Assembly: GCA_013298895.1 (NCBI GenBank)
Contig: JAAFJM010000005.1
Coordinates: 106,229-170,228, forward strand
Origin: Bacteroidota bacterium
Lineage (GTDB): Bacteria; Bacteroidota; Bacteroidia; UKL13-3
Reading direction: 5' to 3'
DNA: 64,000 bases
Positions 1 to 60,051 of the stretch are shown here, one piece after another. Under the pieces are notes generated by a model, which was given only the letters and a program-made list of their open reading frames with translations, was not told where the DNA came from and ran no database searches. Made by a program: the position numbers and the translations under genes. Position 1 is the stretch's first letter. The number at the start of each line of letters is the position of its first letter.

Positions 1-471
1 AAACTTTATTGTAATCAGTATTTCTAAACTTTATGTAATTAGTACTTTGTGCGTTTGCAAAAAATAAATTAAGCAAAAATGCAGTATTAGTAGTATTTTC
101 CTCATTTATAAAGCAGTATTTTAAAAAGTTATTTTTTTCAAAGTTTAGAATTTATAAAGTAGGGTCACTGTTAAGTTAACATAGATTTTACTTCCTATTC
201 CTTGAGAGGGTGAATATTGCGAATTGTTTTCAAAACCAAATATTTTGTTTTTAAAAGCAATTTCATTTTGCAGTTTATAACCAACTAAATAACCCATACC
301 TATCAAGATTTTCTGTCCTAAAATTAATTGATGATTACTTCCTATTTCAATAGATTGATATAGAAATCCATAAAAATTTATTCTTAAATTAATTACTGTA
401 AATAAGCTATGGTAATCAAGTTATAAAATGTTTTATTTGTAAACTTAAAAAATCTAATTGTATATAAAGAA

Positions 472-984
472 ATGAAAAAAATAATTTTATGCGCAGCAGT
501 TGCTTTAACTGTAATTGCATGTGGCAATGGTAACACACCAAAACAAGAAACAACTCCAACAGATACAACTAAAACTGCAACTGATACTACAGCACAAGCT
601 CAATATTTTGGTGCTAAAATTACAGAAGAAGGTGCTATTGCATTGGCCGAATTAAAAGGCGCAATGGGCGAAAAGAAAGAATTAAGTACTAAGGTAATGG
701 GTGAAGTAGAGGCTGTTTGCCAGAAAAAAGGCTGTTGGATGAATATTAAAAATGCAGAAGGTGAAAGCATGCGTGTAACTTTTAAAGATTATGCTTTTTT
801 TATGCCTATGGACTGTTCAGGTAAAACTGCAATAGTAGAGGGTATGGCTAAAATAGAAGAAACAAGTATTGCTGATTTAAAAGAATATGCCAAAGACGAC
901 AACCAAAGCAAAGAAGCTATTGCTGCCATTAAAGAACCTAAAAAAGAATTGGTTTTTGAAGCAAGTGGTGTAATTTTAAAGTAG
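472..984 (+). CDS. DUF4920-like lipoprotein
   Basis: Signal peptide ending in Cys (VIACGNG) then a low-complexity Thr-rich linker. The C-terminal KKGCWMNIKN...DCSGK region resembles DUF4920 lipoproteins common in Flavobacteriia. Confidence 0.5.
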   Translation: MKKIILCAAVALTVIACGNGNTPKQETTPTDTTKTATDTTAQAQYFGAKITEEGAIALAELKGAMGEKKELSTKVMGEVEAVCQKKGCWMNIKNAEGESMRVTFKDYAFFMPMDCSGKTAIVEGMAKIEETSIADLKEYAKDDNQSKEAIAAIKEPKKELVFEASGVILK

Positions 985-1002
985 TTAACAAAATTGTTTT
1001 AT

Positions 1003-1040
1003 AAAAACAGCCAATAATTTTTTTATTGGCTGTTTTTTAT
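1003..1040. terminator. Rho-independent terminator
   Basis: Perfect inverted repeat AAAAACAGCCAATAA / TTATTGGCTGTTTTT with a 5-nt loop and flanking T-run, directly after the stop at 984. Confidence 0.7.
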
Positions 1041-1057
1041 TTTACCAAAGTAAAAAT

Positions 1058-1525
1058 ATGAAAAAAGTAATTTACATAATTGTATTAGCGTTATTTACAG
1101 GTATTTTAATTAATGCTTGTACAAATAATAATAACCAACAAGCAGGAGCAAAAATTGCTGATTCTGCAACAGTTATTGAAACCGTAAAAGACCCAAATAA
1201 ACCCAAACCTATGGCTTTAATGATGCGCCAAATGGCAGCCAATGCAGATAGCATGAAAGCTAAACTTTTAAGAGGTGAAAGTATAGATAGTTTATCGTTT
1301 CCTTTTATTCGTTTTTACTTAGTAGAACCCACCGACAAAAATGTTTTGGAACCTCAGTTTTTCGAAAATGCTAAAGTTTATCAAGCTGCTCATAAAGCTA
1401 TTTTTGACCATCCTGAAAATCAAAAAAAATATTATAACTTAATGATTGGTGCTTGTATTAGTTGTCATGAAAATTATTGTAGTGGCCCATTACGCAGGAT
1501 AAAAAAAATGCCAATAATAGATTAA
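1058..1525 (+). CDS. Lipoprotein with a single CXXCH motif, putative c-type cytochrome
   Basis: Lipoprotein signal (LINAC). A C-terminal CISCH matches the heme c attachment motif CXXCH. No other homology recognised. Confidence 0.4.
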   Translation: MKKVIYIIVLALFTGILINACTNNNNQQAGAKIADSATVIETVKDPNKPKPMALMMRQMAANADSMKAKLLRGESIDSLSFPFIRFYLVEPTDKNVLEPQFFENAKVYQAAHKAIFDHPENQKKYYNLMIGACISCHENYCSGPLRRIKKMPIID

Positions 1526-1527
1526 GT

Positions 1528-2010
1528 ATGAAAAGTATTTTTACCATTATTTCTTTACTAGTTATTGGTTCGTGTGGTATTTTTAAAAATAAGTCTACCA
1601 TGATTTTAAACGGAAGAGCAACCCAAGAAACACTCACAAATAATCAATATTTTTGGTTTACTGATGAATACAATAATTATAAAGTAAATCAAGAATTAAT
1701 TAATCAATTAAAGCCTTTAAAGGAAGACTTAAAAGTGCTTATAGTAGCAGGTACATGGTGTGGTGATACTCAACGAGAATTACCTCGTTTTTTTAAAATT
1801 GCTAATCAAATTGGCATTCCAGCAGAAAATATTGAAATGATAATGGTAAATGAAAAAAAGCAATCAGCTGCATTTAATATTTCGGTTATTCAGGTTACTA
1901 ACATTCCAACATTTATTTTTTTTAAAGATGGCAAAGAGCAAGGAAGAATTATTGAAAAACCCAAAACCACCATTGAAGAGGACTTATGTAACCTATTAAA
2001 TTTAATGTAA
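1528..2010 (+). CDS. Thioredoxin-fold lipoprotein (monothiol WCGDT motif)
   Basis: Lipoprotein signal (VIGSCG). VAGTWCGDTQRELP resembles the thioredoxin WCGPC active site but only one Cys is present. Starts 3 bp after the preceding gene. Confidence 0.5.
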   Translation: MKSIFTIISLLVIGSCGIFKNKSTMILNGRATQETLTNNQYFWFTDEYNNYKVNQELINQLKPLKEDLKVLIVAGTWCGDTQRELPRFFKIANQIGIPAENIEMIMVNEKKQSAAFNISVIQVTNIPTFIFFKDGKEQGRIIEKPKTTIEEDLCNLLNLM

Positions 2011-2194
2011 AAAACATTAGTTAGTTCACACTAAAAGTTCTTTAAAGTAACAATATCGCAAAACTCCTATTTCTTTAATAACTCCTTTGAAAAGTATACT
2101 GATAAAATCTTTTGTTAAAAGGAAATGACTTTGATAAAGGTTAGCGTATATCAATTCATAAAAACGCTTTAACCAACAAATAATAGAAAATTTA

Positions 2195-4408
2195 TTATTC
2201 TATTACATCCATAAAAATACCCCTTATTCTAAAATCATTCAAATCATCTCCTTTCAAAATAATATCTTCATATTCGTCCATTGTCGATAAAGGTTTCAAG
2301 ATTATTGATTCATGTTTACGTTCATCATTGGATAAATTCCATTTACTATGATACTCCTTAACTGTATAACCAGAACCAAATTCAGAGTCTCTTATATTCG
2401 TTGATTCTACTAAAACAATTTTACCATTTCTTGATCCTCCTTCATCTTGTCTGAATAAACAATACGAACCATTTGGTATTTTTTTATTCATAGATTCTCC
2501 TATTACTTTACAAATGAAATAACCTTTTTTAGCTGAGATATTAAATGGCGGTTCTACCCATATCAACTCTGAATGTTGCTGCAAGTCGCTAAAGTTTCCT
2601 GCTGCTGCGGAGATATCAACTAATGGTATTGAATTGACGTATGGTTTTGCTTCTTCAAACCGTAGGATTCTGAATGGAATTTCTTTTTTGAAAGTCTCAA
2701 TGTGATTTTGTAAATACTCTCTCAACTCTTTGTTATAAGCGTAAATAAAAGTTCCCTTTATTCCACGATACATTATTGTCTTGTAAATATTAACAATAAA
2801 GTTCTTTAGTTCTTCTTCATTTACTCCGATTCGCCCATATTTATCAAAATAGTTACTTGAATCAATTTCGATTTTATTTGTCGCAGAGTTGTAATTTATT
2901 TCTTTTCCGAAAATAACTCCTGTATAGTTTAAATCATATCCTTGAACTGTATGAATACAACCAATTTCATGCAAAGGATTATTAATGTCTTTTGGATTGT
3001 TAATCCAATCTTTATCAGTTTGATTCCATTGAAATTGTAGGCCTTCAATTTCTATATCTATCGCATCTGGAGTTGGATTCTTTTTTTTGGGGTCAGATTG
3101 CCATTCCCATGAATACCCTGCAACTAACCTACACAAGTGAAAGTCTTCTTCTTTTTTTGATAATTCGGTATACAAATCTTTAAATGATTCAAATAATACA
3201 AGATCATATGATTCTTCTCTATATTTAGATTGAATTGTTCTTTTAACATTTAGTAATTCGTCAACAAATTGAATATAGTTATTACCACCTTTTACTCTCA
3301 TTTGAGACTTCAGTTCAAGCTTTAACGTGTTTTTCTCATTCAATAAAGTATTAAAATTTGAAGAGTCAACATCAGAAGGCTTCACAGATTGAGCTGAGTC
3401 ATAAAAGAAAATTTGGTTCTTGCTATTTGCAAGTATCCAATCCAACTCAGTGCCAGTGTCATCTAAATTTAATTTTTGATTATTCTTTTTAAATGCACCT
3501 CTCCAGCCAATATTTTTATATTGCCTAAGTCTGTGAGCTTCGTCAACGATTAATAAATCATATTTCTCTGAACTAAAAGTGTCTGATGGGTTTATTACCA
3601 TAGATGCTTTAAGCCCTGGAATTTTTCTGAATACATTTTCTAATGATTCTCTAAGAGAAGTCATTGCCACTACTAAACCAATTTTTGCATTAGGATATTT
3701 ATTTCTAAATTCAATGATATAATTAATCTCTCGCAATTCATCATCATTGAAATCTTCGATTTGTATATTTCCAACATCTGTACTCAAAAGTTTAATCAAA
3801 TAGGTGGCAAGAATGGTTTTTCCAGTTCCAGCACCTCCGCTAATAAAAATTCTATTTGATTTTTTTGATGTTAATCCTTCCAATATTTCAATAACAGAAT
3901 TATATTGATCTTCATTAAGCGACTTATATGGGGAATATTTAAATAATTCTGAATTTTCTATTTCAGTTAATGATTTTGTTACAATTTTTTTCTCAATAAG
4001 TTGATTCCAAATTTCTTTAAAAAGATTTTTATATAAATCCTGTTGATAATAATTGTGATTTATTAACCCGTAATTACCATTCTGAAGCTTATAAGTACCT
4101 TCAGCTGTTATATATTGAATTAAACTCGACTCAATATCTAATGTTGCGGACTTATTGAATTTATCTGAACCAATAATAGATATTTTATCAAGCTTACACC
4201 TTTCAGGATTTGCTAAATGATTTTTGATACGGCTAGATGCATTTGTCGATTCACCAACATATGCAATTTTTATTGAATCGTTTTGAATAAAATAAACCAA
4301 TGGCCATTGGTTTTTAACCCAAGTATTTTGTTCAATACTACTTAGTGAGAGTTTGTTAAAATCATATTGTTCAGAAACTTCAATTGATAATTCAAAGGAT
4401 AAACTCAT
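2195..4408 (-). CDS. GIY-YIG nuclease / DUF2075-type P-loop ATPase / C-terminal S24 (LexA/UmuD-like) peptidase domain fusion protein
   Basis: N-terminus VYFIQNDSIKIAYVGES...SSRIKNH...DIESSL matches GIY-YIG (GIY, YIG, conserved R, N/H, E). Walker A motif ISGGAGTGKT plus LLIVDEAHRL Walker B/DEAH-like, as in DUF2075/Schlafen-like ATPases. C-terminus has GESM (Ser in the G[DE]SM context) and YTVKEY (Lys in TVK[RE]) about 45 residues apart, with GKIVLV, as in the S24 Ser-Lys dyad fold. Its ATG overlaps the upstream gene's stop by 4 bp (ATGA). Confidence 0.75.
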   Translation of the reverse strand: MSLSFELSIEVSEQYDFNKLSLSSIEQNTWVKNQWPLVYFIQNDSIKIAYVGESTNASSRIKNHLANPERCKLDKISIIGSDKFNKSATLDIESSLIQYITAEGTYKLQNGNYGLINHNYYQQDLYKNLFKEIWNQLIEKKIVTKSLTEIENSELFKYSPYKSLNEDQYNSVIEILEGLTSKKSNRIFISGGAGTGKTILATYLIKLLSTDVGNIQIEDFNDDELREINYIIEFRNKYPNAKIGLVVAMTSLRESLENVFRKIPGLKASMVINPSDTFSSEKYDLLIVDEAHRLRQYKNIGWRGAFKKNNQKLNLDDTGTELDWILANSKNQIFFYDSAQSVKPSDVDSSNFNTLLNEKNTLKLELKSQMRVKGGNNYIQFVDELLNVKRTIQSKYREESYDLVLFESFKDLYTELSKKEEDFHLCRLVAGYSWEWQSDPKKKNPTPDAIDIEIEGLQFQWNQTDKDWINNPKDINNPLHEIGCIHTVQGYDLNYTGVIFGKEINYNSATNKIEIDSSNYFDKYGRIGVNEEELKNFIVNIYKTIMYRGIKGTFIYAYNKELREYLQNHIETFKKEIPFRILRFEEAKPYVNSIPLVDISAAAGNFSDLQQHSELIWVEPPFNISAKKGYFICKVIGESMNKKIPNGSYCLFRQDEGGSRNGKIVLVESTNIRDSEFGSGYTVKEYHSKWNLSNDERKHESIILKPLSTMDEYEDIILKGDDLNDFRIRGIFMDVIE

Positions 4409-5019
4409 AATTCAGTGTATTTTTTAGCAACGCCTTTAGACTTATCTACTGGATATTTTTTATCATTTTCAATGGTTTTATCTATAACAGCATCAAACAA
4501 ATCAATGCCATAATTATTAGCCAAGTACAAGCAATAAGTAACTATATCAGCTAATTCATTTTTTACTTTATCTTCATCTACATCCTTTTCTCTATCCCAA
4601 AGAAACAAGTCAATCAGCTCACCAGCCTCCGATCCTATAGCCATAGATAAATTTTTAGATGTATGAAACTTTTTCCAATCCCTTTCACTTCTAAAGCTAT
4701 CCAAAAACTTCATCATTTCATTTAATGGATTAAAACCTAAAGGCTGTTCATAGACTAAAACAATTTGATTTGGGCCTATTAAATTCTTATGGAAAATAAA
4801 ATCACCTTCTTCGTATGAATTTTCAACATTAAAAACATCAGGTGCCAAAATAATATCAAAGCCTTGTTCTCTTAAAAAACTATTTACCAAAACTATTTGC
4901 TTTTGTATAGATTCGGCTTCGAATGTTCTTTTAAATAACTTCCCTTCTGTCCAGCCATGATGGAGTTCCGCTAATCTATCAGAAAAAGGATAAACTTCAG
5001 ATAATAAAGGTAATTTCAT
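4405..5019 (-). CDS. MazG-like all-alpha NTP pyrophosphohydrolase with an uncharacterised ~100-aa N-terminal domain
   Basis: The C-terminal half FHTSKNLSMAIGSEAGELIDLFLW...NELADIVTYCLYLA carries the ExxE...ExxD metal-binding signature of MazG/YpjD-type NTP-PPases. The gene sits between the neighbouring genes with a 2-nt gap on one side and a 4-nt overlap on the other. Confidence 0.65.
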   Translation of the reverse strand: MKLPLLSEVYPFSDRLAELHHGWTEGKLFKRTFEAESIQKQIVLVNSFLREQGFDIILAPDVFNVENSYEEGDFIFHKNLIGPNQIVLVYEQPLGFNPLNEMMKFLDSFRSERDWKKFHTSKNLSMAIGSEAGELIDLFLWDREKDVDEDKVKNELADIVTYCLYLANNYGIDLFDAVIDKTIENDKKYPVDKSKGVAKKYTEL

Positions 5020-5021
5020 AG

Positions 5022-6998
5022 TTAATTTTGAGGTTTATGCATTGTCAATGCTAATTTATATTCATCATCGTAAGGCAATTGTAATTGTGGAAGCATTTCG
5101 GGTATTGCCAAAGCCCAACTAACATAGTAGTAAGCAAGAACATGATAACCTGAAAAGGTTTTTCCTTTAATCGAACTTATTCTGTAATCGTCTTTATCAG
5201 GCCTATAACCTTGCGTGCCTTGCATAGCAATTTCTAACGCCATTTTCTTAATTTCTTCTTTAGGCATTCCAACGAAAAATTGAAGAGCATCAACCATGAA
5301 CATAACCACTGCCATGTTAGTACCAATGCTCTGCTGTGACTTTTGGAACTTTTCCATTTCCCTTTCTTTGTAAGGGTCTTTGGATTCCAAATCATAAGGA
5401 TCTTTTTCAATGGATGATAAAAGCTCGTCTATATTTGTTCTTTTTGTTCTGTATTCATTTTCATTAACAAGTTCAAAGTTCTTATCAAGTTTTAAGTCTT
5501 CTGCCCAATGCAATACCAATTCATACTCTTCAGCAGGTTCTTTATCGTCCTTGTATTGCAAATACTCTTCATAAAAATCTGTTGCTAATTTCATTTCTGA
5601 CGGAATAGCATTGAAGTCTTTGATAAAGTCAAAACCAAATAATTCTTTGAACTGAATTGCATTTACAATATTGTAGACCTTGCTTTTTGAAATGATGTCT
5701 TTGGGAGAGAGTTCAACAATCTTTTTATCTGTTACAGCCTTCAGGCCTTCTTGTAACATATTGTAGAGAGAGATAAATTGAAAAGGTCTGAGTTCTGCGA
5801 ATTCATTATAAAGGAAATTCTCAATAAATAAGTCAATTGGCGTATTGAATATTTGACGGTTCATGCCTTCAAATAAATTAGAACAATAATCAGCAATTGA
5901 CTTTTCAGAAATTCCCATTTTGTTGAATTTCTTGATTGTCGGTTCAAGTTCTTTTATGAATTCTGTTTTATGATTCTGAGTAGAAATAAATAATTGGTTT
6001 AACTCACCTTTTCTTGCTTCAATAACAAAATCTAAATGCACCAATTCATGCATTATTAAATGTTCAACCGCTGGATAACTTGGTTTGTATTTTACAATGT
6101 GAGTTTCTCTGTCATAGTTTTCTGCAAACTCAAATTTTGCTGCCGTTGGGATTTCTTCATCTTGAATAATGTCAATTTTTCTGTCACCATCAAATTCAAG
6201 TTTGTGTCTGTATTCCCTGAATATTTTTTTGCCAGTATCAGTTGCAATTATTTTTTTAGAAATCTCGAAAGCTTGTCTTACAGAGTTTTGGTATAAAATA
6301 TCCTTACTTTTATTCAGTTTAATTGCTTGAATGGTGCTGTAAAAAGATGACTGCAAGTCCGCTTCCATTTCGGCAATCATTCCTAAAGCAAAATGAGTGT
6401 TTGCATATTGATCATTAATCTTTAAAGCCTCATAAAAATATTTTTTTGCTTCTTCCAATTTACCTTGTTGCATAAGGTTTGCACCAATATTATTTATGGT
6501 GATATTGTCCTTAGGATTTGCAATTTGTGCTTGGTCATAATACTTCATTGCAGTTGGAACATCATCTTTAAATTTAGCAAAGATGTTTCCCATCATAAGT
6601 AAAGCCCATCCATTTTTTGAATCCCAACGCAAAGCGTCAATTAAGCAATTTATTGCTTCATCTTGGTTACCTTCATCGGATAGTACTTGTCCCATAATTC
6701 GGTGGTATTCCGAATTTGTTGGATTTTTTTCAATGAGTTTTTTTAGGATTGGTTTTGCCTCTGAGTATTTTCCTTTTTCGCAAAATGAAACAACTTTTTG
6801 AAAATCTATTTCTTGAGCAAGAATTGAAGATGTATCGATTTCTATTTTTACAAAATCATCATTAATTGATACTCTGGGCTTAATAGAAGCAAAAGTGTAA
6901 TAATTTTCTAGTGTATTGATAATGAGCGATTTACCCCCCCCAATTAATTCTGGGAAGATTTCTAGTAAAAAGTTATCTATTTTATGAATAATTACCAT
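5022..6998 (-). CDS. TPR-repeat protein with a C-terminal HExxH metallopeptidase-like motif
   Basis: Several 34-aa TPR-like repeats (YHRIMGQVL..., ALLMMGNIF..., NNIGANLMQQG..., HFALGMIAE...). The C-terminal region has HELVH. The ORF track starts at TTG (7016). I prefer the ATG at 6996-6998 (MVIIHKID...) because a TAcaTTTG -7 box (complement of 7014-7021) lies just upstream. Confidence 0.6.
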   Translation of the reverse strand: MVIIHKIDNFLLEIFPELIGGGKSLIINTLENYYTFASIKPRVSINDDFVKIEIDTSSILAQEIDFQKVVSFCEKGKYSEAKPILKKLIEKNPTNSEYHRIMGQVLSDEGNQDEAINCLIDALRWDSKNGWALLMMGNIFAKFKDDVPTAMKYYDQAQIANPKDNITINNIGANLMQQGKLEEAKKYFYEALKINDQYANTHFALGMIAEMEADLQSSFYSTIQAIKLNKSKDILYQNSVRQAFEISKKIIATDTGKKIFREYRHKLEFDGDRKIDIIQDEEIPTAAKFEFAENYDRETHIVKYKPSYPAVEHLIMHELVHLDFVIEARKGELNQLFISTQNHKTEFIKELEPTIKKFNKMGISEKSIADYCSNLFEGMNRQIFNTPIDLFIENFLYNEFAELRPFQFISLYNMLQEGLKAVTDKKIVELSPKDIISKSKVYNIVNAIQFKELFGFDFIKDFNAIPSEMKLATDFYEEYLQYKDDKEPAEEYELVLHWAEDLKLDKNFELVNENEYRTKRTNIDELLSSIEKDPYDLESKDPYKEREMEKFQKSQQSIGTNMAVVMFMVDALQFFVGMPKEEIKKMALEIAMQGTQGYRPDKDDYRISSIKGKTFSGYHVLAYYYVSWALAIPEMLPQLQLPYDDEYKLALTMHKPQN

Positions 6999-7013
6999 TA
7001 GTTTTTTATGATT

Positions 7014-7021
7014 CAAATGTA
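7014..7021 (-). promoter_or_regulatory. Bacteroidota sigma-A -7 box (TAnnTTTG) for the three-gene operon
   Basis: Minus-strand TACATTTG, 16-23 nt upstream of the ATG at 6998. Confidence 0.35.
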
Positions 7022-7189
7022 ATGCAAAATGATATTATTTCATTAAAAAGTATGTGTGAATAGATATCAGAATTTAATTTAAAATATAGTCCTTATGAAA
7101 TCAATTACTTAAAATGTGCTTCTTAAAAATAAAATTACTTTACTAACCAAATTTGATAAATATGTCAAGCACTATTTTAGTTCTAAAAC

Positions 7190-7385
7190 CCGTGCGGGAA
7201 AGGTTTTGTCAAAGTTCAAGACTTTAACAAAGGTAAAGACAGTTAAAAAGGAACTACTTTTGGTTTCAAGTTTAAAACTTTGACAAAGTATATTCCGCAT
7301 AATTTTCCCTATTAATCTATTCCGTAGGGGAACACCTTTGTCAAAGTTCAAGACTATACAAAGGTAAAGACCAATAAAAAGGAAA
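7190..7385. repeat. Intergenic composite repeat: two ~65-bp direct copies plus an inverted partial copy
   Basis: CCGTgcGGGAAaggTTTGTCAAAGTTCAAGACTtTAaCAAAGGTAAAGACagtTAAAAAGGAA (7190-7253) recurs at 7322-7385 with few mismatches. CAAGTTTAAAACTTTGACAAAG (7267-7288) is an inverted partial copy of the core TTTGTCAAAGTT. Lies between the divergent operon (start 6998) and the PKD gene (7515). Confidence 0.7.
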
Positions 7386-7514
7386 ACTGCACTCATCCTA
7401 TAAAACTTTACAATAAAAAAATTTACTTTTAATTGGAGTAAACTAAACTTTATTATATTCGTTTAAAATTGTTGTTACCCTAAAAAGGCTTCACCAAATA
7501 GTTAGGATATAAAT

Positions 7515-10500
7515 ATGGTTAAAAAAATTTACTTAATAATTTTAGTGTTGCTTGCAACATTAAAAATTTCAGCCCAAACTTGTACTATTATTGCCAATTC
7601 AAATTTAGTATGCCTTGGCAATGCCATAAATTTTAGCGCAACTTTTACACAAGGCTTAACTCCTAGCATTTATGAATGGAATTTTGGGAATGGCGTTACC
7701 AATAATCAAGCTAGTCCTACCTATAACTACCCTAATACAGGTAACTTTACACCAACCTTGAAAATTACTTTTACCAACAATTCGCAGTGCGTGGTAAATG
7801 GAAGCAATATTCAAGTGGTGGCACTGCCTATTGCCGATTTTGTAATAACTACTGCTACACGCCAATGTTTTAAAGGCAATAGTGTTTGTGTAAATGATTT
7901 ATCAAAACCAGGACCAAGCGGAAGTCCATTGAATATTCGTACTTTTTTATGGGGAGATGGTGGTTTTGATGTAAGTCCAATAAGTAATAAAAACTTTTGT
8001 AATACCTATACAAACAGCGCTGGTAGTACTAACTCACTCGTACTTGAGGTTACCGATGCCAATGGCTGTTTAACACGACTTGAAAAAAACAATGCCATTG
8101 TTATTTTACCCAAATCGGATGCCATTAGTTTTGTAACACAATACAATGTAAAATGCAATACCACTCCAGTTACATTTTTAAATACTTCCATTTTATCACA
8201 ATCAAAGGTTAAGAAATTTACTTGGGATTTTGGTGATGGTACCATTGATTCGTCAAGTACCAAATGGAATAATTTTATACATAATTATACTATTGGAGGT
8301 TATTTTTCACCACGATTAATCGTTACCGATTTAAATGATTGTAAAGATACTTTTGTATTGGTTAATGGAGCCCAAAATCTTAAATTAGATGACAAAATTA
8401 CAATTACCAATGTAGATAAATGTTTTAGTAAACAAGATTATTCTTTTTCAGTACCAGGCTCATCAGGGGCAAATATTTATTGGTCTATTTACGATGAAAA
8501 AGGCAAAATATTTGACACCATATACAATACAGCATATATACAATTGGCCAACAAAAAATTTAATTGTGGTTGGTACAAAGTAAACATGTATGCCAGTGCT
8601 GGCAGTTGTAATATAAAAGCAGATACTTTAGTTGAAGTTTTTGGCCCTAATACTATTTTAGCCAATGATACAGTTAGACCATTAAATGAAAACCAGTGTA
8701 ATCCTAACGATACTGTTTTTTTTAGAGTTCCTCCTCCTGAAATTTCATGTTTTTATAAAAATGTAACCAATTGGCTTTGGGACTTTGGTGATGGTTTTGC
8801 ACCTCCTTGTACCACTGATACTAAAAACGGAATTAATGTAGGTGTAAATTGTAGGTATAGTAAAGATAGCACTAATATCAAACACAAATACAATCCAACA
8901 AAACCAGATTGTTATAATGTAAAACTATTAATTACCGACCCTATAAAAAATTGTAGTGACCTTGATTCTTCATTGGTAATATTAAGTAGCCCCAACGCAA
9001 AACCTAATTTACCAACACGCAGAGGATTATACTATTACACCATTCCTCCTGGTAAAGCAGGACCACCACAAAATTGTTTTTCAAGTACCTTTGTATTTCA
9101 ATACGAAGAAACCTTACCCGATTGCGGCAGAGAAAGAGTATGGATTAACCTAGATTCGGCTGCTGGAAAAAACAGATGGGACTCTGTATATCCTAAAGAA
9201 AATTTTCACATTACGAGGTATTCAAATACTGCAGATCCTAACGGATGGGTTACAGTTGGTTTAATCATTAAAAATGGCATTTGTTACGATACCGCTTGGT
9301 ATCACAATATGTTTCAGCTACTCAAAATAAAACCTCAGTTTAAGGCAACGGTAGAAGGAAAATGCCCTCCTTATAAAGTTACAGTTAATTTAATTGACTC
9401 CATACAAGATAGCATAGTTACCGCACGAATAAGTTTTAATGGTATTGACAGTGTTCAAAACTTAGCTTTAACAGACTCGGTTATAAACCAGAAAGTGGGG
9501 TACTTTAATTCAATGGGAATTAAAACAATACGTGTTACATTAACCAATGCCAAAGGCTGTAGCCAAGTTTACGACACTTTGCTATACCTTGGCTTTTATA
9601 AAGATTTAGCCATACCAAAACCAATAGGTTGTTTTAAAGATTCAATTCAATTTTTAGAGGTAGTGGATTATTATTCTAAAACTACCAACTATTGGAAACA
9701 ACCCGCGAGAGCAATTGCTAATAAAGAAAAGTTGTGGTGGAACTTTGGAGATACGAATGTATTTGTAGCGGGAGGCAGTTCACCAAAATATAAATTTAGT
9801 AGACCGGGCAATTTTTTAGTAAAAATTGCAATTCAAGATAGTCTTGGATGCAGAGATACTATGATAGCTAGGCAAACAATAAAAATAGTAGATGTAAAGG
9901 CTAATATTTTACCTATTAGTGCTAACTTAATTTGTGCTCCTAAAATTATTCCATTTAAAGACAATTCAAAAGTTATTGACTCATCAGCATTATATGGCAA
10001 TAGTAGCTACGACAACATCATTTCTTGGAGTTGGGACTTTGGGGATTTAAAAGCCAAATCATTATTAAAAGATCCTCTTCATGACTATACAAGTAATGAT
10101 TCTTTTATGGTTACACACATAGTAAAAACTACAGCTGGATGCACCGATACTGTATTTTTACCTTTAATTATTAAAGGCCCCAAACCTAAATATCTTTTTT
10201 CAAGTGGAGATACATTAGGATGCGCCCCTGTTAAACTAAAACTAAATAATACAACAGGAAAACAAATTAAAAGTTGGCAATGGACAGTAAATGGTCCGTT
10301 AAACTTCATTATCTCAACTGATAAAGACACTGCAACAGATTTTTCGTTGGTAAAAGCAGGGAAATATAGAATTTTATTATTAGGAACTGACTCATTGGTA
10401 AATGAAGTAACTGGACAAACTGTTTATTGCACATCTGTTTACCCCGATACTTTAAACCCAAGTCAAAAGCCTGTTTATGTAACCGTTTACGACAAACCTT

Positions 10501-11300
10501 TAGTAAATTTAATTGGGCCTGATACTATTTGTCCAAACCAAAATTTCTCAATAATAGCAAGGGCGGATACCATTTATAATCAATTTTTATGGCAGGTAAG
10601 TGATGGATTTACGGCACCACTAAAACCAAAAACTGATACAGTATTCACTCATAGTATTAAAGATACCGGAAACTTTATTATAACTATGATTCCAAGTACG
10701 TCTGTGAAAATTTCATGTTTGGATACTGGCTATCATGCAATTTATGTTAGCAATATTAAAGCTAATTTTGACATTGATGATACCAAATCACCCTTGTATT
10801 CTTTTATAAATAAATCAACTAATGCTGTAAGTTATAATTGGAATTTTGGACAACCAAATTCAGGATCTGAAAATAGTTCAAACATTCAAAACCCAAGTCA
10901 TGATTATAAAAACTTAAACGATAGTTTTAAAATTTGTTTAGTAGTAAAAAATGCAGGCGATTGTTATGATACAGCATGTAAAGTAATATTGCCAGTAGCA
11001 CGTTTAATAAATGTGCCAAATGTGTTTACACCCAATAACGATGGCATAAACGATGCTTTTGATATAGATATTTTCGGAGAATTTGAGTACAATTTAAAAA
11101 TATTTAACCGTTGGGGAGGTAAAGTTTTTGAAGGAACTAAAGATGGTAAAGGAAATGATGGCATTAATTGGAATGGAAAAACAGATAATGATGGATATCC
11201 TAATCCTGACGGTGTTTATTACTATACCTTTAAATACAAATTTAACAGTACGGAACCCGAAAGAACTTTACATGGAAGTATCACATTAATTCGTGAATAA
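7515..11300 (+). CDS. PKD-repeat surface protein with T9SS type B (gliding-motility-associated) C-terminal sorting domain
   Basis: Signal peptide. Repeated W(N/D)FG(D/N)G PKD signatures throughout. C-terminus VPNVFTPNNDGINDAFDI...FNRWGGKVFEG...GVYYYTF is characteristic of the CHU_C / T9SS type B sorting domain. Confidence 0.8.
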   Translation: MVKKIYLIILVLLATLKISAQTCTIIANSNLVCLGNAINFSATFTQGLTPSIYEWNFGNGVTNNQASPTYNYPNTGNFTPTLKITFTNNSQCVVNGSNIQVVALPIADFVITTATRQCFKGNSVCVNDLSKPGPSGSPLNIRTFLWGDGGFDVSPISNKNFCNTYTNSAGSTNSLVLEVTDANGCLTRLEKNNAIVILPKSDAISFVTQYNVKCNTTPVTFLNTSILSQSKVKKFTWDFGDGTIDSSSTKWNNFIHNYTIGGYFSPRLIVTDLNDCKDTFVLVNGAQNLKLDDKITITNVDKCFSKQDYSFSVPGSSGANIYWSIYDEKGKIFDTIYNTAYIQLANKKFNCGWYKVNMYASAGSCNIKADTLVEVFGPNTILANDTVRPLNENQCNPNDTVFFRVPPPEISCFYKNVTNWLWDFGDGFAPPCTTDTKNGINVGVNCRYSKDSTNIKHKYNPTKPDCYNVKLLITDPIKNCSDLDSSLVILSSPNAKPNLPTRRGLYYYTIPPGKAGPPQNCFSSTFVFQYEETLPDCGRERVWINLDSAAGKNRWDSVYPKENFHITRYSNTADPNGWVTVGLIIKNGICYDTAWYHNMFQLLKIKPQFKATVEGKCPPYKVTVNLIDSIQDSIVTARISFNGIDSVQNLALTDSVINQKVGYFNSMGIKTIRVTLTNAKGCSQVYDTLLYLGFYKDLAIPKPIGCFKDSIQFLEVVDYYSKTTNYWKQPARAIANKEKLWWNFGDTNVFVAGGSSPKYKFSRPGNFLVKIAIQDSLGCRDTMIARQTIKIVDVKANILPISANLICAPKIIPFKDNSKVIDSSALYGNSSYDNIISWSWDFGDLKAKSLLKDPLHDYTSNDSFMVTHIVKTTAGCTDTVFLPLIIKGPKPKYLFSSGDTLGCAPVKLKLNNTTGKQIKSWQWTVNGPLNFIISTDKDTATDFSLVKAGKYRILLLGTDSLVNEVTGQTVYCTSVYPDTLNPSQKPVYVTVYDKPLVNLIGPDTICPNQNFSIIARADTIYNQFLWQVSDGFTAPLKPKTDTVFTHSIKDTGNFIITMIPSTSVKISCLDTGYHAIYVSNIKANFDIDDTKSPLYSFINKSTNAVSYNWNFGQPNSGSENSSNIQNPSHDYKNLNDSFKICLVVKNAGDCYDTACKVILPVARLINVPNVFTPNNDGINDAFDIDIFGEFEYNLKIFNRWGGKVFEGTKDGKGNDGINWNGKTDNDGYPNPDGVYYYTFKYKFNSTEPERTLHGSITLIRE

Positions 11301-11309
11301 AAATATTAT

Positions 11310-11663
11310 ATGACTAATGAACACATAGCTTTAAAATGGTTTGAAGCGTTTAACAACCATAATCTTGATAATTTATTAAACTTATACAGTGAAAATGCCA
11401 AACACTATAGTCCTAAGTTAAAGGTAAGACAACCAGAAACTAATGGCTTAATAGTTGGTAAAAATGCACTTAGAGTTTGGTGGGCTGATGCTTTTAAACG
11501 TTTGACTAATTTACATTATGAAGTAACATCACTAACCGCAAACAATAACCGGGTTTTTATGGAATACATAAGAAAGGTACCCAATGAAGAGGAAATCTTA
11601 GTGGCCGAAGTACTTGAAATTGAAGATGGTTTAATAGTTGCATCAAGGGTTTACCATGGATAA
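11310..11663 (+). CDS. NTF2-like / SnoaL-like small protein
   Basis: 117 aa, cytoplasmic. The pattern ALKWFEAFNNHNLDNLLNLYSENAKHYSP...ASRVYHG is typical of the NTF2-like superfamily. Confidence 0.5.
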   Translation: MTNEHIALKWFEAFNNHNLDNLLNLYSENAKHYSPKLKVRQPETNGLIVGKNALRVWWADAFKRLTNLHYEVTSLTANNNRVFMEYIRKVPNEEEILVAEVLEIEDGLIVASRVYHG

Positions 11664-11675
11664 ATTAATTGAATA

Positions 11676-12185
11676 GTGAAATCTTCAATTTTATTATTCC
11701 TTATGCTGCTCATATTTGTTTTTAGCAGCTGTCAAAAGCGGTATTGGTATAGGTCTTTTGTATGGGGTTCTGACAAAAATTTAGTCCCTGCTAATATTGT
11801 AATAAACAATAGCAGCACTCAATTACTTAATAAAGCTTTTGAAGATGAAATATTAACTGCCTGCAAAAAACAATTGCAAAAAAAAGGCTTCAAAATCTCA
11901 ACAAAAAAAGCAGCCTTCACCTTTGAATTAAACATTAAAGTTGACAAATTTTCAGTAAGCGGTTTAGCATATTATGGTGGAGAAAAAACATATTTATACC
12001 CCTACTACGACAAAGATGTAAAAGCAATATTATTAGATTGCTACTTATTCGAAACTAAAAAAGATTTACGTTGGAAGGTATGGGAAAATAGTAATGATTT
12101 ATATTTTTTTGGTAAACAAAAGCGTGATATGAGAAGAACAAAAAGTATGGTTAAATATTTAATTAGGAGCGCCAAGCAAAAATGA
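11676..12185 (+). CDS. Hypothetical lipoprotein
   Basis: Signal peptide with lipobox (VFSSCQ). No recognisable domain. Confidence 0.4.
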   Translation: MKSSILLFLMLLIFVFSSCQKRYWYRSFVWGSDKNLVPANIVINNSSTQLLNKAFEDEILTACKKQLQKKGFKISTKKAAFTFELNIKVDKFSVSGLAYYGGEKTYLYPYYDKDVKAILLDCYLFETKKDLRWKVWENSNDLYFFGKQKRDMRRTKSMVKYLIRSAKQK

Positions 12186-12883
12186 AAAATTTACTAAAAT
12201 TAATCTTGGTATTATTTGTAATATCAAATAATGCCTATGCACAAACAGAGAAACTATTAGATAAAGTAAAGAAACAATCTGCAAGTATTAAATCTGGCTC
12301 CTATATAGTAACCAAACGATTCAAATATTTTGATTTTAATGAAACAAAAACAGCAAAATTAGCTGTTCAATTTTGCGAACTAAAAAACACCACACTTTGT
12401 ATAATTAACGATTTAGAAAATGAAGAAATTATGTATTTTGACACTTCAAAGTATGTGTATCACTTTAGTAAAAAGGATTCAATTTTAAGAATTTTAATAG
12501 CATATAATCCAAACCAAGATTTACTTTATCGCTATATGCAACCATATGGATATCCTGCTATTTACCCATCTAATTTAAAAAATACCCAAATATTAAATTC
12601 AAAAACATTATGTACCTTAGTTGACACTAATTTTGATAATGAAAATGGAATATTTAGAAATGAAAAATTTGAATTCACGGTTGATAAAAAGCTAAATACA
12701 ATTATAAATTATAAAACCTATTTAGAAATGAGAGCCTATAATGGCAGTTATAACAATCAAAGAATAGAAGAAAGCATTACAAATGTTAAACTAAATAATT
12801 TTAAAGCACCTAAATTTTTAAAAAAAATAAAGCTAGAAATGAGCAGATTACCCATTAAAAGAAAAATGCTAATGGGTTACTAA
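12182..12883 (+). CDS. Hypothetical secreted protein
   Basis: N-terminal signal peptide (ISNNAYAQ). 4-bp overlap with the upstream gene. Confidence 0.4.
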   Translation: MKNLLKLILVLFVISNNAYAQTEKLLDKVKKQSASIKSGSYIVTKRFKYFDFNETKTAKLAVQFCELKNTTLCIINDLENEEIMYFDTSKYVYHFSKKDSILRILIAYNPNQDLLYRYMQPYGYPAIYPSNLKNTQILNSKTLCTLVDTNFDNENGIFRNEKFEFTVDKKLNTIINYKTYLEMRAYNGSYNNQRIEESITNVKLNNFKAPKFLKKIKLEMSRLPIKRKMLMGY

Positions 12884-58215: not shown

Positions 58216-60051
58216 ATGAAAAAAATCATTACTTTAAGTTTATCCTTACTTGTTTCAAGCATAGGATTTTCTCAAAACGCCCCAATTAATTTTGAAACGG
58301 GTGGTCAAGGTGCGAGTTGGACTTGGACAACTTTTGAGAATGGCACGAATCCAACATTAGAAATTGTAAACAATCCTAGTTCAGTTGCTCCAAACACTTC
58401 TAGTAAAGTAGCAAAATTTACTGCACTAAAAGGAGGTAATCCGTGGGCTGGATGTGAGTCTGCGAAAGGTTCAGATATTGGTACGTTTTCTTTATCTGCA
58501 TCAAATGCCAGAGTGAAAATTTTGGTTTACAAAACTAGAATTAGCGATGTTGGAATCAAGTTCGTTAACAGCACCAATGGCTCTACAGGCGAAATCAAAG
58601 TTCCTAATACTAAAATCAACGAGTGGGAAGAGTTAACTTTTGACTTTTCTTCAAAAATTGGTGTCCCTGAATCAAATAATATTACTCAAATTGTAATATT
58701 CCCTGATTTCATTCCCGGTGGTGATCCTAGAGCTGATACTACTATTTCTTATTTCGACAATATTACATTTTCTGCCGGCACTACTTTAGCTGAACCAACT
58801 GCGCCTGCCATGGCTCCAACCAAACTAGCCGCTGATGTTATTTCATTGTTTAGCAACGCTTATACCAATGTAACAGTTGATACTTGGAGAACAGGTTGGT
58901 CTAACGGTACACTTACAGAAATGAAAATTGGCACTGATGATGTTAAAAAATACTCTGGATTGGATTTTGTTGGTATTGAAATGATTGCAAAACCAATTAA
59001 TATCAGTGCTATGGATTTGTTTGAATTTGACATTTGGACGCCAAATTCAACTAATTTTAGATTCAAATTAGTTGATGCTGGAGCCAATGGAACTATTGGA
59101 GGTGGGGATGATAAAGAGCACGAACTTACTGTTACTCCTACATTAGAAGGATGGAATCATATAGCGGTGCCAATATCGAATTTTACTGGCTTAACAACTA
59201 AGTCAAATATTGCACAACTTATTTTTGGAAGTGCGCCTGTAGGTACATCTATAGTTTATTTGGATAATATTATGTTTAGTAAAGCCCCTGTATTGGCTGA
59301 ACCAACTGTTGCAGCAAAAACTCCTACAAAATTAGCTAAAGACGTTATTTCTTTGTTTAGCAATGCTTACACCAATGTAACAGTTGATACATGGAGAACT
59401 TCTTGGTCTAATGGAACACTTACAGAAACGAAAATTGGAGCTGATGATGTTAAAAAATACACTGGATTAGATTTTGTTGGGATTGAAACGATTGCAAAAC
59501 AAATTGATTTAACTGGTATGGATTCATTTGAATTTGATATGTGGACGCCAAATTCTACTGCTTTTAGGTTCAAATTAGTTGATGCAGGCGCTGATGGTGT
59601 TATTGGTGGTGGTAATGATAAAGAACATGAAACAACCATTACACCGACTTTAAACGGTTGGAATCACGTAGCAGTGTCAATATCGAGCATGACAGGCCTT
59701 ACAACCAAAAAGAATATTGCACAACTTATTTTTGCAAGTGCGCCTGTAGGGACTTCAATTGTTTACATTGATAATGTTTTATTTAGCAAAAAAACTTCAG
59801 TAGGTGTTTCTTCTATTGCGCAAGAAACAATTGGTGTTTTCCCAAATCCTGCAAGCAATAATTTAAATATCACCACTAAAAATAATATTCAAGATATTGC
59901 CATTTACAATGCATTGGGTCAGGTTGTATTAACAACTTCACCAAATGCTAATACTGTAAATGTTGATATTACTAGTTTACCAAACGGTTTTTATACTGTT
60001 AAGGCTAGCATAAATGGTGTTGATACCTTCAAGAAAATTATAAAAGAATAA
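58216..60051 (+). CDS. T9SS type A cargo protein with three CBM-like beta-sandwich domains (two near-identical tandem copies)
   Basis: Signal peptide. The C-terminus VFPNPASNNLNITT...IYNALGQVV...GFYTVKA is Por_Secre_tail. Internal 169-aa repeats are ~85% identical. Confidence 0.75.
   Translation: MKKIITLSLSLLVSSIGFSQNAPINFETGGQGASWTWTTFENGTNPTLEIVNNPSSVAPNTSSKVAKFTALKGGNPWAGCESAKGSDIGTFSLSASNARVKILVYKTRISDVGIKFVNSTNGSTGEIKVPNTKINEWEELTFDFSSKIGVPESNNITQIVIFPDFIPGGDPRADTTISYFDNITFSAGTTLAEPTAPAMAPTKLAADVISLFSNAYTNVTVDTWRTGWSNGTLTEMKIGTDDVKKYSGLDFVGIEMIAKPINISAMDLFEFDIWTPNSTNFRFKLVDAGANGTIGGGDDKEHELTVTPTLEGWNHIAVPISNFTGLTTKSNIAQLIFGSAPVGTSIVYLDNIMFSKAPVLAEPTVAAKTPTKLAKDVISLFSNAYTNVTVDTWRTSWSNGTLTETKIGADDVKKYTGLDFVGIETIAKQIDLTGMDSFEFDMWTPNSTAFRFKLVDAGADGVIGGGNDKEHETTITPTLNGWNHVAVSISSMTGLTTKKNIAQLIFASAPVGTSIVYIDNVLFSKKTSVGVSSIAQETIGVFPNPASNNLNITTKNNIQDIAIYNALGQVVLTTSPNANTVNVDITSLPNGFYTVKASINGVDTFKKIIKE
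58789..59802 (+). repeat. Tandem 507-bp intragenic duplication (2 copies, ~85% nt identity)
   Basis: GCTGAACCAACTG... at 58789 recurs at 59296, and the sequences stay collinear for ~500 bp. Confidence 0.8.

Follow-up and report, generated by a model that had tools for sequence, protein, structure and literature searches.

The closest described relatives of the repeat reported here are the REP/REPIN-RAYT systems, or 'REPtrons', among them E. coli TnpA-REP with its GTAG-tagged REPs (PDB 4ER8) and the REPINs of Pseudomonas. In these systems, short extragenic hairpin palindromes form clusters or arrays that flank a single HUH-Y1 gene at a conserved chromosomal site, and more copies lie in unrelated intergenic regions. 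RAYTs show single-copy, syntenic behaviour (PMC5581495), and loss of the RAYT followed by decay of the REPINs has been described for E. coli, Pseudomonas, and Neisseria (bioRxiv 10.1101/2021.07.10.451892). For Bacteroidetes, Quentin et al. 2018 (PMC6006769) describe TnpA-REP subclasses bordered by 'double foot' or atypical structures. In subclass 2.4 the REPs are long, of the 'double foot' type, and have three G-C pairs at the base of the stem, and subclass 2.6 has atypical flanking structures with copies elsewhere in the genome; atypical tags have also been reported in Bacteroidetes subclasses (PMC6006769). Subclasses 2.4 and 2.6 correspond to RAYT groups 4 and 5 of Bertels et al. 2017 and share Bacteroidetes hosts with the family described below.

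In the 64-kb stretch of DNA analysed here (the window), a composite repeat upstream of a PKD adhesin gene is very probably a two-unit REP-type array of a RAYT-flanking family, orphaned and decaying at its RAYT site after the RAYT was lost. The RAYT gene itself is absent from the 64-kb window, so the link between the units and a RAYT rests on related genomes. Comparing the family with REPtrons, the repeats are likewise short extragenic hairpin palindromes, their clusters or arrays in relatives flank a single HUH-Y1 gene at a conserved chromosomal site with more copies in unrelated intergenic regions, RAYT loss is accompanied by decay of the orphaned repeats, and the protein fold is closest to 4ER8. 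However, the foot is GTGC(GGG) and stands 2-5 nt from the stem, whereas canonical REPs have GT[AG]G at the hairpin base. The unit also differs in being composite, with two near-identical AT-rich 12-13-bp hairpins within a closing GGG/CCC stem, and the flanking units are in direct orientation, with a copy number that appears low in the window's closest relatives. Unlike REPtron RAYTs, the 210-aa protein escapes Pfam Y1_Tnp, and it has F/E at the positions aligned with the GTAG-contacting W94/Q95 of E. coli TnpA-REP. By analogy with that enzyme, this replacement may relate to the different tag.

The Bacteroidetes subclasses come closer in several respects. Like subclasses 2.4 and 2.6, the protein has an NH[IFV]H HuH motif and a tyrosine motif of the YIxNNP / YIH[QN]NP kind, and the GTGC-GGG ... 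CCC-GCAC unit, which encloses two hairpins (H1 and H2), has the double-foot layout of subclass 2.4 with a GTGC tag. The family is nevertheless set apart by a tyrosine motif that is mostly YIHHNP, by FE where 2.4 and 2.6 have WQ, and by a length of 210 aa compared with means of 179-194 aa. The survey behind these subclasses was collected by the Pfam Y1_Tnp profile, which is blind to the present RAYT family at E 0.01, and the family was therefore probably not sampled (PMC6006769). The resemblance to IS200/IS605 elements lies in the HUH-Y1 fold, with the TnpA proteins of IS608, ISDra2, and IS200 as the next-best structures, and in an enzyme gene flanked by DNA hairpins. However, the motif is YIHxNP (class 2, TnpA-REP type) and not Y[IV]ENQ, the gene occupies a conserved syntenic position (purN-RAYT-amidohydrolase in at least five MAGs) instead of occurring in many copies, and the repeats have spread without the gene. 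The locus is best filed as REP/RAYT, a known kind, to which the array described here adds an atypical tag and a composite unit.

The repeat array upstream of the PKD adhesin gene

All repeat copies lie inside the 516-nt gap that separates a minus-strand TPR gene, with its likely ATG at 6998, from a plus-strand gene for a PKD/CHU_C (type IX secretion) adhesin that starts at 7515. The TPR gene is the first of an operon that also encodes a MazG-like protein and a Schlafen-group-3 helicase with GIY-YIG and S24 domains; a look-up of the TPR protein with the start as called in L028, one of the related loci (numbered with an L throughout), found no record. A repeat search placed two direct copies of about 64 nt each at 7190-7253 and 7322-7385, 132 nt apart from start to start, with an identity of 70% ungapped or about 83% by our own count if a 1-nt gap is allowed. 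The same search found an inverted partial copy at 7265-7299, with 35-nt arms that are 74% complementary to 7193-7227. When the 64 kb was scanned for the 19-mer core TTTGTCAAAGTTCAAGACT with up to 3 mismatches, there were three matches, two exact and one inverted with 3 mismatches, all within the 7190-7385 part of the gap. The expectation from shuffled sequence was 0.04, and no shuffle gave three matches. The direct-plus-inverted repeat that an earlier sequence-only reading of this DNA had noticed in the divergent gap is thus borne out. Part of the impression of an inverted copy comes from the core, CTTTG-N-CAAAG, being palindromic on its own.

A profile built solely from the units of related genomes (nhmmer) matched the window at 7190-7294 (E 8.5e-28) and at 7323-7383 (E 1e-10), with no further significant match elsewhere in the 64-kb window. 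The first match marks unit 1 (7190-7300, plus strand), which is of the 'double-foot' type and is composed of a 5' foot, hairpin H1, a linker, a remnant of hairpin H2, and an inverted 3' foot. Unit 1 shares 90% identity with L010 282-173 and 84-86% with units of L023 and L030. Its 5' foot, GTGCGGG (7192-7198, plus), is intact. H1 spans 7203-7233 on the plus strand, with arms at 7203-7215 and 7221-7233 around the loop TCAAG (7216-7220), and has been damaged by a G>A change at 7226 that leaves 10/11 inner pairs. Of H2, only the second arm, ACTTTGACAAAGT (7277-7289, plus), is left; its first arm and A6 loop are missing, a state shared with the 104-nt variant of the unit in L003 and L010. This surviving arm is what had been read as an inverted partial copy, and it belongs to the same unit of about 110 nt as the first direct copy. 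The inverted 3' foot, ATATTCCGCAT (7290-7300, plus), has one G-C pair fewer than the consensus ATAGCCCGCAC obtained by comparing L023 and L003 units, and pairs with 7193-7197 in the predicted fold. As single-stranded DNA, unit 1 forms a long hairpin with a dG of -17.5 kcal/mol (z -4.3).

Downstream of unit 1, a 21-nt inter-unit linker, AATTTTCCCTATTAATCTATT (7301-7321, plus), is shared with L023, in which units are separated by the same linker (CATTTTCCCTATTAATCCATT), and it is this linker that gives rise to the 132-nt spacing. Unit 2 (7322-7385, plus) is the terminal, truncated unit and has an ortholog upstream of the PKD adhesin gene in L003, L031, and L032. Its foot has mutated to GTAGGGG (7324-7330). 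The H1 of unit 2 retains an arm at 7335-7347 and a loop at 7348-7352; the second arm (7353-7364) is broken by a 1-nt deletion and a mismatch, leaving 7/11 inner pairs. Unit 2 lacks H2 and the 3' foot, and its fold is weak (z -2.0).

Two other features of the window were considered. A minus-strand ORF of 74 aa (7172-7396) runs across the repeats, has no family match, and was treated as spurious. At 58737-59543, two 300-nt direct copies, 79% identical and 507 nt apart, are unrelated to the REP array and are probably a duplicated coding segment.

The repeat family and its RAYT-type transposase in related genomes

In related genomes, the canonical unit consists of a GTGCGGG foot, H1 (CTTTGTCAAAGT-TCAAG-ACTTTGACAAAG), a linker of about 42 nt, H2 (the same stem with an A6 loop), and an inverted foot, CCCGCAC. 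The full unit is about 104-131 nt long, and both stems are 12-13 bp. The fold of a complete unit has a free energy of -31 kcal/mol (z -6.7), and a closed two-hairpin structure would be possible as single-stranded DNA. Among the fetched copies, H1 is often accompanied by H2, and the foot GTGCGGGA, with at most one mismatch, lies 2-5 nt upstream of H1 in 45/65 hairpins of the fetched loci. The hairpin is well kept, with all 11 inner pairs of H1 present in 37/39 copies outside the window. Covariation in the hairpin stems amounts to two internal compensated variants plus the outermost pair. The support is thin because one master sequence dominates, and the covariation is weak evidence that selection may act on the hairpin.

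A scan of a species-representative genome collection found the 19-mer core in 27 loci, nearly all of them in freshwater Bacteroidota MAGs. In each of six MAGs the exact core occurs on 2-4 contigs, often two to four times per locus, and the neighbourhoods amount to about ten distinct, unrelated intergenic contexts overall among related MAGs. The three closest genomes, the MAGs of L003, L010, and L023, have the exact core at one locus only, as does the 64-kb window. Every cluster in the loci fetched from the genome scan is intergenic, in convergent, tandem, and divergent settings alike, and the neighbours are unrelated to one another, including a T9SS surface protein and mfd, recF and a response regulator, a fatty-acid desaturase, and a DEAD-box helicase. 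The units of the relatives are arranged head to tail in tandem arrays with a period of 104-150 nt. Some matches were set aside as chance: the core match in Ensifer (L009), because the second arm is absent; the single match of a 19-mer scan of viral contigs (L040), which lies inside a coding region and also has no second arm; and the single match of a metagenome scan with AACTTTGACAAAGTATAKYCCG, the 3' part of the window-type unit, which falls in a kinase-like fragment (L038). The viral-contig scan with the 19-mer thus gave no sign that phages carry the units, and a literature search for the core sequence returned unrelated primers only.

Other palindromes accompany the units. A small hairpin (AGACCTGACAGGTCT / AGACCTGAAAGG...CCTGTCAGGTCT) recurs beside the REP arrays at L023 3860-3900 and 5085-5105, L010 1000-1035, and L030 3570-3590. 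In L002, L011, and L019 the units come with more hairpin modules, such as CCTATAAGGTTTTTGAAAC... and a terminator-like stem rich in G+C. Several types of palindrome are mixed within the arrays.

A 210-aa ORF is bracketed on both sides by units in six genome loci (L006, L010, L012, L022, L023, and L025), and the same gene with flanking units is present in metagenome contigs L030-L037. The protein carries the HUH motif NHFH and the tyrosine motif YIHxNP; NHFH and YIH[HN]NP are invariant or nearly so in 45 homologues. At E 0.01, Pfam assigned no family to the protein, Y1_Tnp included. The NCBIfam model REP_Tyr_transpos (NF047646) matched it with an E of 8e-12 and 45 bits, below the curated cut-off of 80 bits. 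With a 45-sequence profile, the only significant sequence match in the PDB was 4ER8, E. coli TnpA-REP (E 4.7e-4), and the alignment sets YIHxNPxKHGFV against YIYINPVKHGWV. The AlphaFold model of the protein has a pLDDT of 87.9, and its best Foldseek match was 4ER8_A (E 6.8e-7, TM 0.72), followed by the TnpA proteins of IS608, IS200, and ISDra2. Judged by its motifs and the predicted fold, the 210-aa protein is an HUH-Y1 enzyme of the TnpA-REP type. The family has 3939 homologues at E <= 0.001; the named ones among the best 120 are almost all from Bacteroidota, and some homologues bear the JGI label 'REP element-mobilizing transposase RayT'.

One clade of this RAYT sits at the fixed purN-RAYT-amidohydrolase position in at least five MAGs, in line with the single-copy, syntenic behaviour described for RAYTs (PMC5581495). 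This purN/amidohydrolase 'home' locus is absent from the window.

The site with and without the RAYT gene

In the comparison of orthologous intergenic regions that the sequence-only reading had proposed, L010 and L031/L032 carry a RAYT at this site, and L003 does not. Window 259-7230 aligns with L010 8000-1032 at 98.1% identity. In L010, the RAYT lies between a left unit, on the side of the TPR operon, and a 104-nt tandem array. The L010 contig stops inside this array (L010 1-282 / L028 10685-10964), and we therefore infer the linkage of TPR operon, RAYT, and PKD adhesin gene within one genome. Window 7187-7230 aligns to both the left and the right unit of L010, which puts the junction inside a repeat unit, the pattern that recombination between direct repeats leaves when it deletes the intervening DNA. 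Toward the adhesin gene, window 7189-12883 is 91.6% identical to L003, which has three units after an HTH gene and before the adhesin gene, without a RAYT. L031 and L032, 90.6% identical to the window on the adhesin side, have the order RAYT stop, units, the same terminal truncated unit, a conserved leader, and the PKD adhesin start. The RAYTs of L010, L023, and L031 are 85-89% identical to one another, which is consistent with orthology at the PKD adhesin site. Most simply, the presence of the RAYT at this site would be ancestral, and the gene would then have been lost independently in the window and in L003. To judge from these alignments, recombination between the flanking units most likely gave rise to the RAYT-less allele of the window.

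A second RAYT clade offers a parallel. There, L008 corresponds to L012 minus about 700 nt that hold the RAYT and one unit, and a 91-nt unit is common to both flanks. The RAYT-less allele has the order amidohydrolase, repeat units, purN (L008 4885-5064 compared with L012 2881-3809), with the junction in the 91-nt unit. On a smaller scale, L031 1420-1440 and L032 990-1045 differ by a 50-nt deletion between two CTTTGTCNAAGT cores, and their RAYT proteins are identical. Together, the loss in L008/L012 and the deletion in L031/L032 indicate that the arrays are recombinationally active, the deletion pointing to continuing slippage or recombination within them. In addition, neither of the two H1 hairpins in the window is intact, compared with 37/39 elsewhere (Fisher p 0.007). 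This damage fits relaxed maintenance after loss of the RAYT.

The events could have unfolded as follows. By analogy with E. coli TnpA-REP and IS608, the RAYT would recognise the hairpin and foot on single-stranded DNA and cut and rejoin the strand there. Such cutting and rejoining would, again by analogy, carry units into other intergenic regions and generate tandem arrays beside the RAYT's own gene. In the lineage of the window, the home site of the RAYT would have been directly upstream of the PKD adhesin gene, and recombination between direct units on its two sides would have removed the gene. The deletion would leave one hybrid unit and the old terminal unit, and without a local RAYT both would decay. 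Any effect on the TPR-MazG-helicase operon or the adhesin gene would be incidental.

The terminal unit is followed by a non-repeat block on the plus strand (7386-7473), which is not REP and is near-invariant among four orthologous loci. The near-invariant run, 7381-7473, overlaps the last 5 nt of unit 2. Of its 93 nt, two vary among the window, L003, L031, and L032, against about 91% identity in the adhesin coding region. An RNA fold of 7386-7520 was not significant (z +0.5), and the block had no Rfam match. The block probably serves the PKD adhesin gene as its promoter or leader.

The genes to the left of the REP/RAYT site vary among relatives and are mostly defence-like. In the window, and also in L010, they are the TPR gene, the MazG-like gene, and the SLFN-g3 helicase gene with GIY-YIG and S24 domains (window 2195-6998, minus strand), which have weak PADLOC matches to AbiO and PDC-S14/M16B. 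L003 has an HTH_3 gene and a restriction-like Mrr_cat_2/ResIII gene (6125-7999), L023 an HTH_3 gene and an N6_N4 methyltransferase gene (5106-7385), and L030/L031 have ABC-transporter accessory genes (L030 114-3559). The right side, with the terminal unit and the PKD adhesin gene, is constant wherever it is visible, which is not the case for L023 or L010. From this gene order, the REP/RAYT site looks like the boundary of a variable island. The array had also been read as a possible footprint of the insertion that delivered the operon. The terminal unit has orthologs in genomes without the operon (L003, L031/L032), and a scar of that insertion is not supported. The idea of a scar does survive in another form, with the array marking the loss of the RAYT at a synteny breakpoint.

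Alternative explanations and implications

The repeats could instead serve the neighbouring genes, either as operator sites or as structured RNAs. In the first case, which the sequence-only reading had also put forward, a dimeric transcription factor would bind CTTTG-N-CAAAG and regulate the divergent TPR operon, the adhesin gene, or both; the core is indeed a perfect 5-1-5 palindrome that occurs three to four times in a divergent promoter gap, and an HTH_3 gene adjoins the array in L003 and L023. However, it is the 3' end of that HTH gene, not its promoter, that abuts the array, and the window array has no HTH or other regulator gene next to it. Units of the family also occur between convergent gene ends (L008, L014, and L016) and beside unrelated genes, they flank the RAYT gene in relatives, and their conservation spans about 100 nt, taking in the foot, the linker, and the second hairpin beyond the palindrome. 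The window sites are the most degenerate of the family. The -7 promoter consensus of Bacteroidetes is TAnnTTTG. An exact match 16 nt upstream of the TPR ATG (7021-7014, minus), the candidate -7 box of the TPR operon, lies outside the units, which speaks against an operator array. There are also exact matches inside the units at 7235-7228 (minus), 7366-7359 (minus), and 7255-7262 (plus), and the in-unit TACCTTTG pair of -7-like boxes points toward the TPR operon; the TTG at the usual upstream spacing is absent for all in-unit -7-like boxes. A scan with a sigma-70 promoter model, which is unsuited to Bacteroidota promoters, gave no enrichment. Overall, no evidence was found for a regulatory role of the units at the TPR operon or the adhesin gene, and we hold an operator array to be highly improbable. 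As for tandem genes of a structured small RNA or cis-regulatory RNA, the significantly stable folds (z -4.3 to -6.7) and the exact TAnnTTTG boxes in the units at 7235(-), 7255(+), and 7366(-) would suit them, yet the stems, being perfect palindromes, fold as well on one strand as on the other, and the occurrence in both orientations and in all gene contexts fits DNA-level elements better. An Rfam 15 scan of 6900-7600 (E <= 10) returned chance-level matches only, the best of them, to a model of an animal miRNA, scoring 29.2 bits where the gathering score is 80. Likewise, no intrinsic terminator (a G+C-rich stem with a T run) was found in 6900-7600, where the array lies between divergent gene starts. 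RNA genes of this kind are extremely unlikely here.

The remaining alternatives accept a mobile or REP-type origin in some form. A MITE-like element was the nearest of the three options in the sequence-only reading, inasmuch as the repeat is a dispersed non-coding hairpin element in about ten contexts that in relatives flanks an HUH transposase gene; the match is to the REP/REPIN type, not to a MITE derived from a DDE transposon with terminal inverted repeats and target-site duplications. Such a classical MITE, a deletion derivative of a DDE-transposase IS, would explain the inverted ends of unit 1 (TGCGG...CCGCA), its length of about 110 nt, and the DDE_Tnp_1 gene beside the L023 array. However, there is no target-site duplication around 7190-7300, with AAAAC|CCGTG on one side and CGCAT|AATTT on the other. 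Head-to-tail tandem arrays with a 104-150 nt period also argue against it, and the consistently linked gene encodes an HUH-Y1 enzyme, not a DDE transposase, whose gene occurs at one locus only. We consider a classical MITE exceedingly improbable. It is very unlikely, too, that the units are real REP elements and the RAYT-less join is an assembly artefact, the true order being TPR operon, unit, RAYT, units, and adhesin gene as seen in L010 and L031 combined. Direct and similar repeats flanking the RAYT could let an assembler bypass the gene, and the L010 contig does break in its array. Nevertheless, the 21-nt linker 7301-7321, the G>A at 7226, and the foot variant are absent from the L010 array, and the window array is thus not a simple collapse of it. 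Moreover, the Logan contig L029 matches 12.6 kb of the window at 100% identity, although it may derive from the same reads, and RAYT-less alleles are also found in other assemblies, those of L003 and L008. A more far-reaching proposal, which we regard as unlikely, is that the RAYT/REP site would be a recombination hotspot that swaps defence cargo via the arrays and perhaps the RAYT, and that the enzyme would form an undescribed, Pfam-invisible RAYT subclass reading a GTGC-tagged double-hairpin unit.

In accounting for the dispersal, the tandem arrays, and the linkage to a RAYT, the operator array, the DDE-type MITE, the small RNA, and the assembly artefact all fall short of the REP/RAYT reading. 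On the favoured explanation, RAYT loss from a REP/RAYT locus, the composite repeat would be a relic of that locus and not a regulatory site specific to the defence-like operon. The arrays would explain contig breaks and synteny breakpoints in MAGs of this kind. They break short-read assemblies, and RAYT loci may accordingly be under-represented in MAGs. The site would provide a sequence-resolved example, seen twice independently, of a domesticated transposase gene being lost by recombination between its own flanking repeats. Decay of the repeats after loss of the RAYT is the pattern predicted by population studies of REPIN-RAYT systems in Proteobacteria, and here it would be met in uncultured freshwater Bacteroidota. 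Its size (3939 homologues), its invisibility to Pfam, and the unusual tag of its repeats make the RAYT-like family a reasonable target for studying how HUH-Y1 enzymes read different guide sequences.
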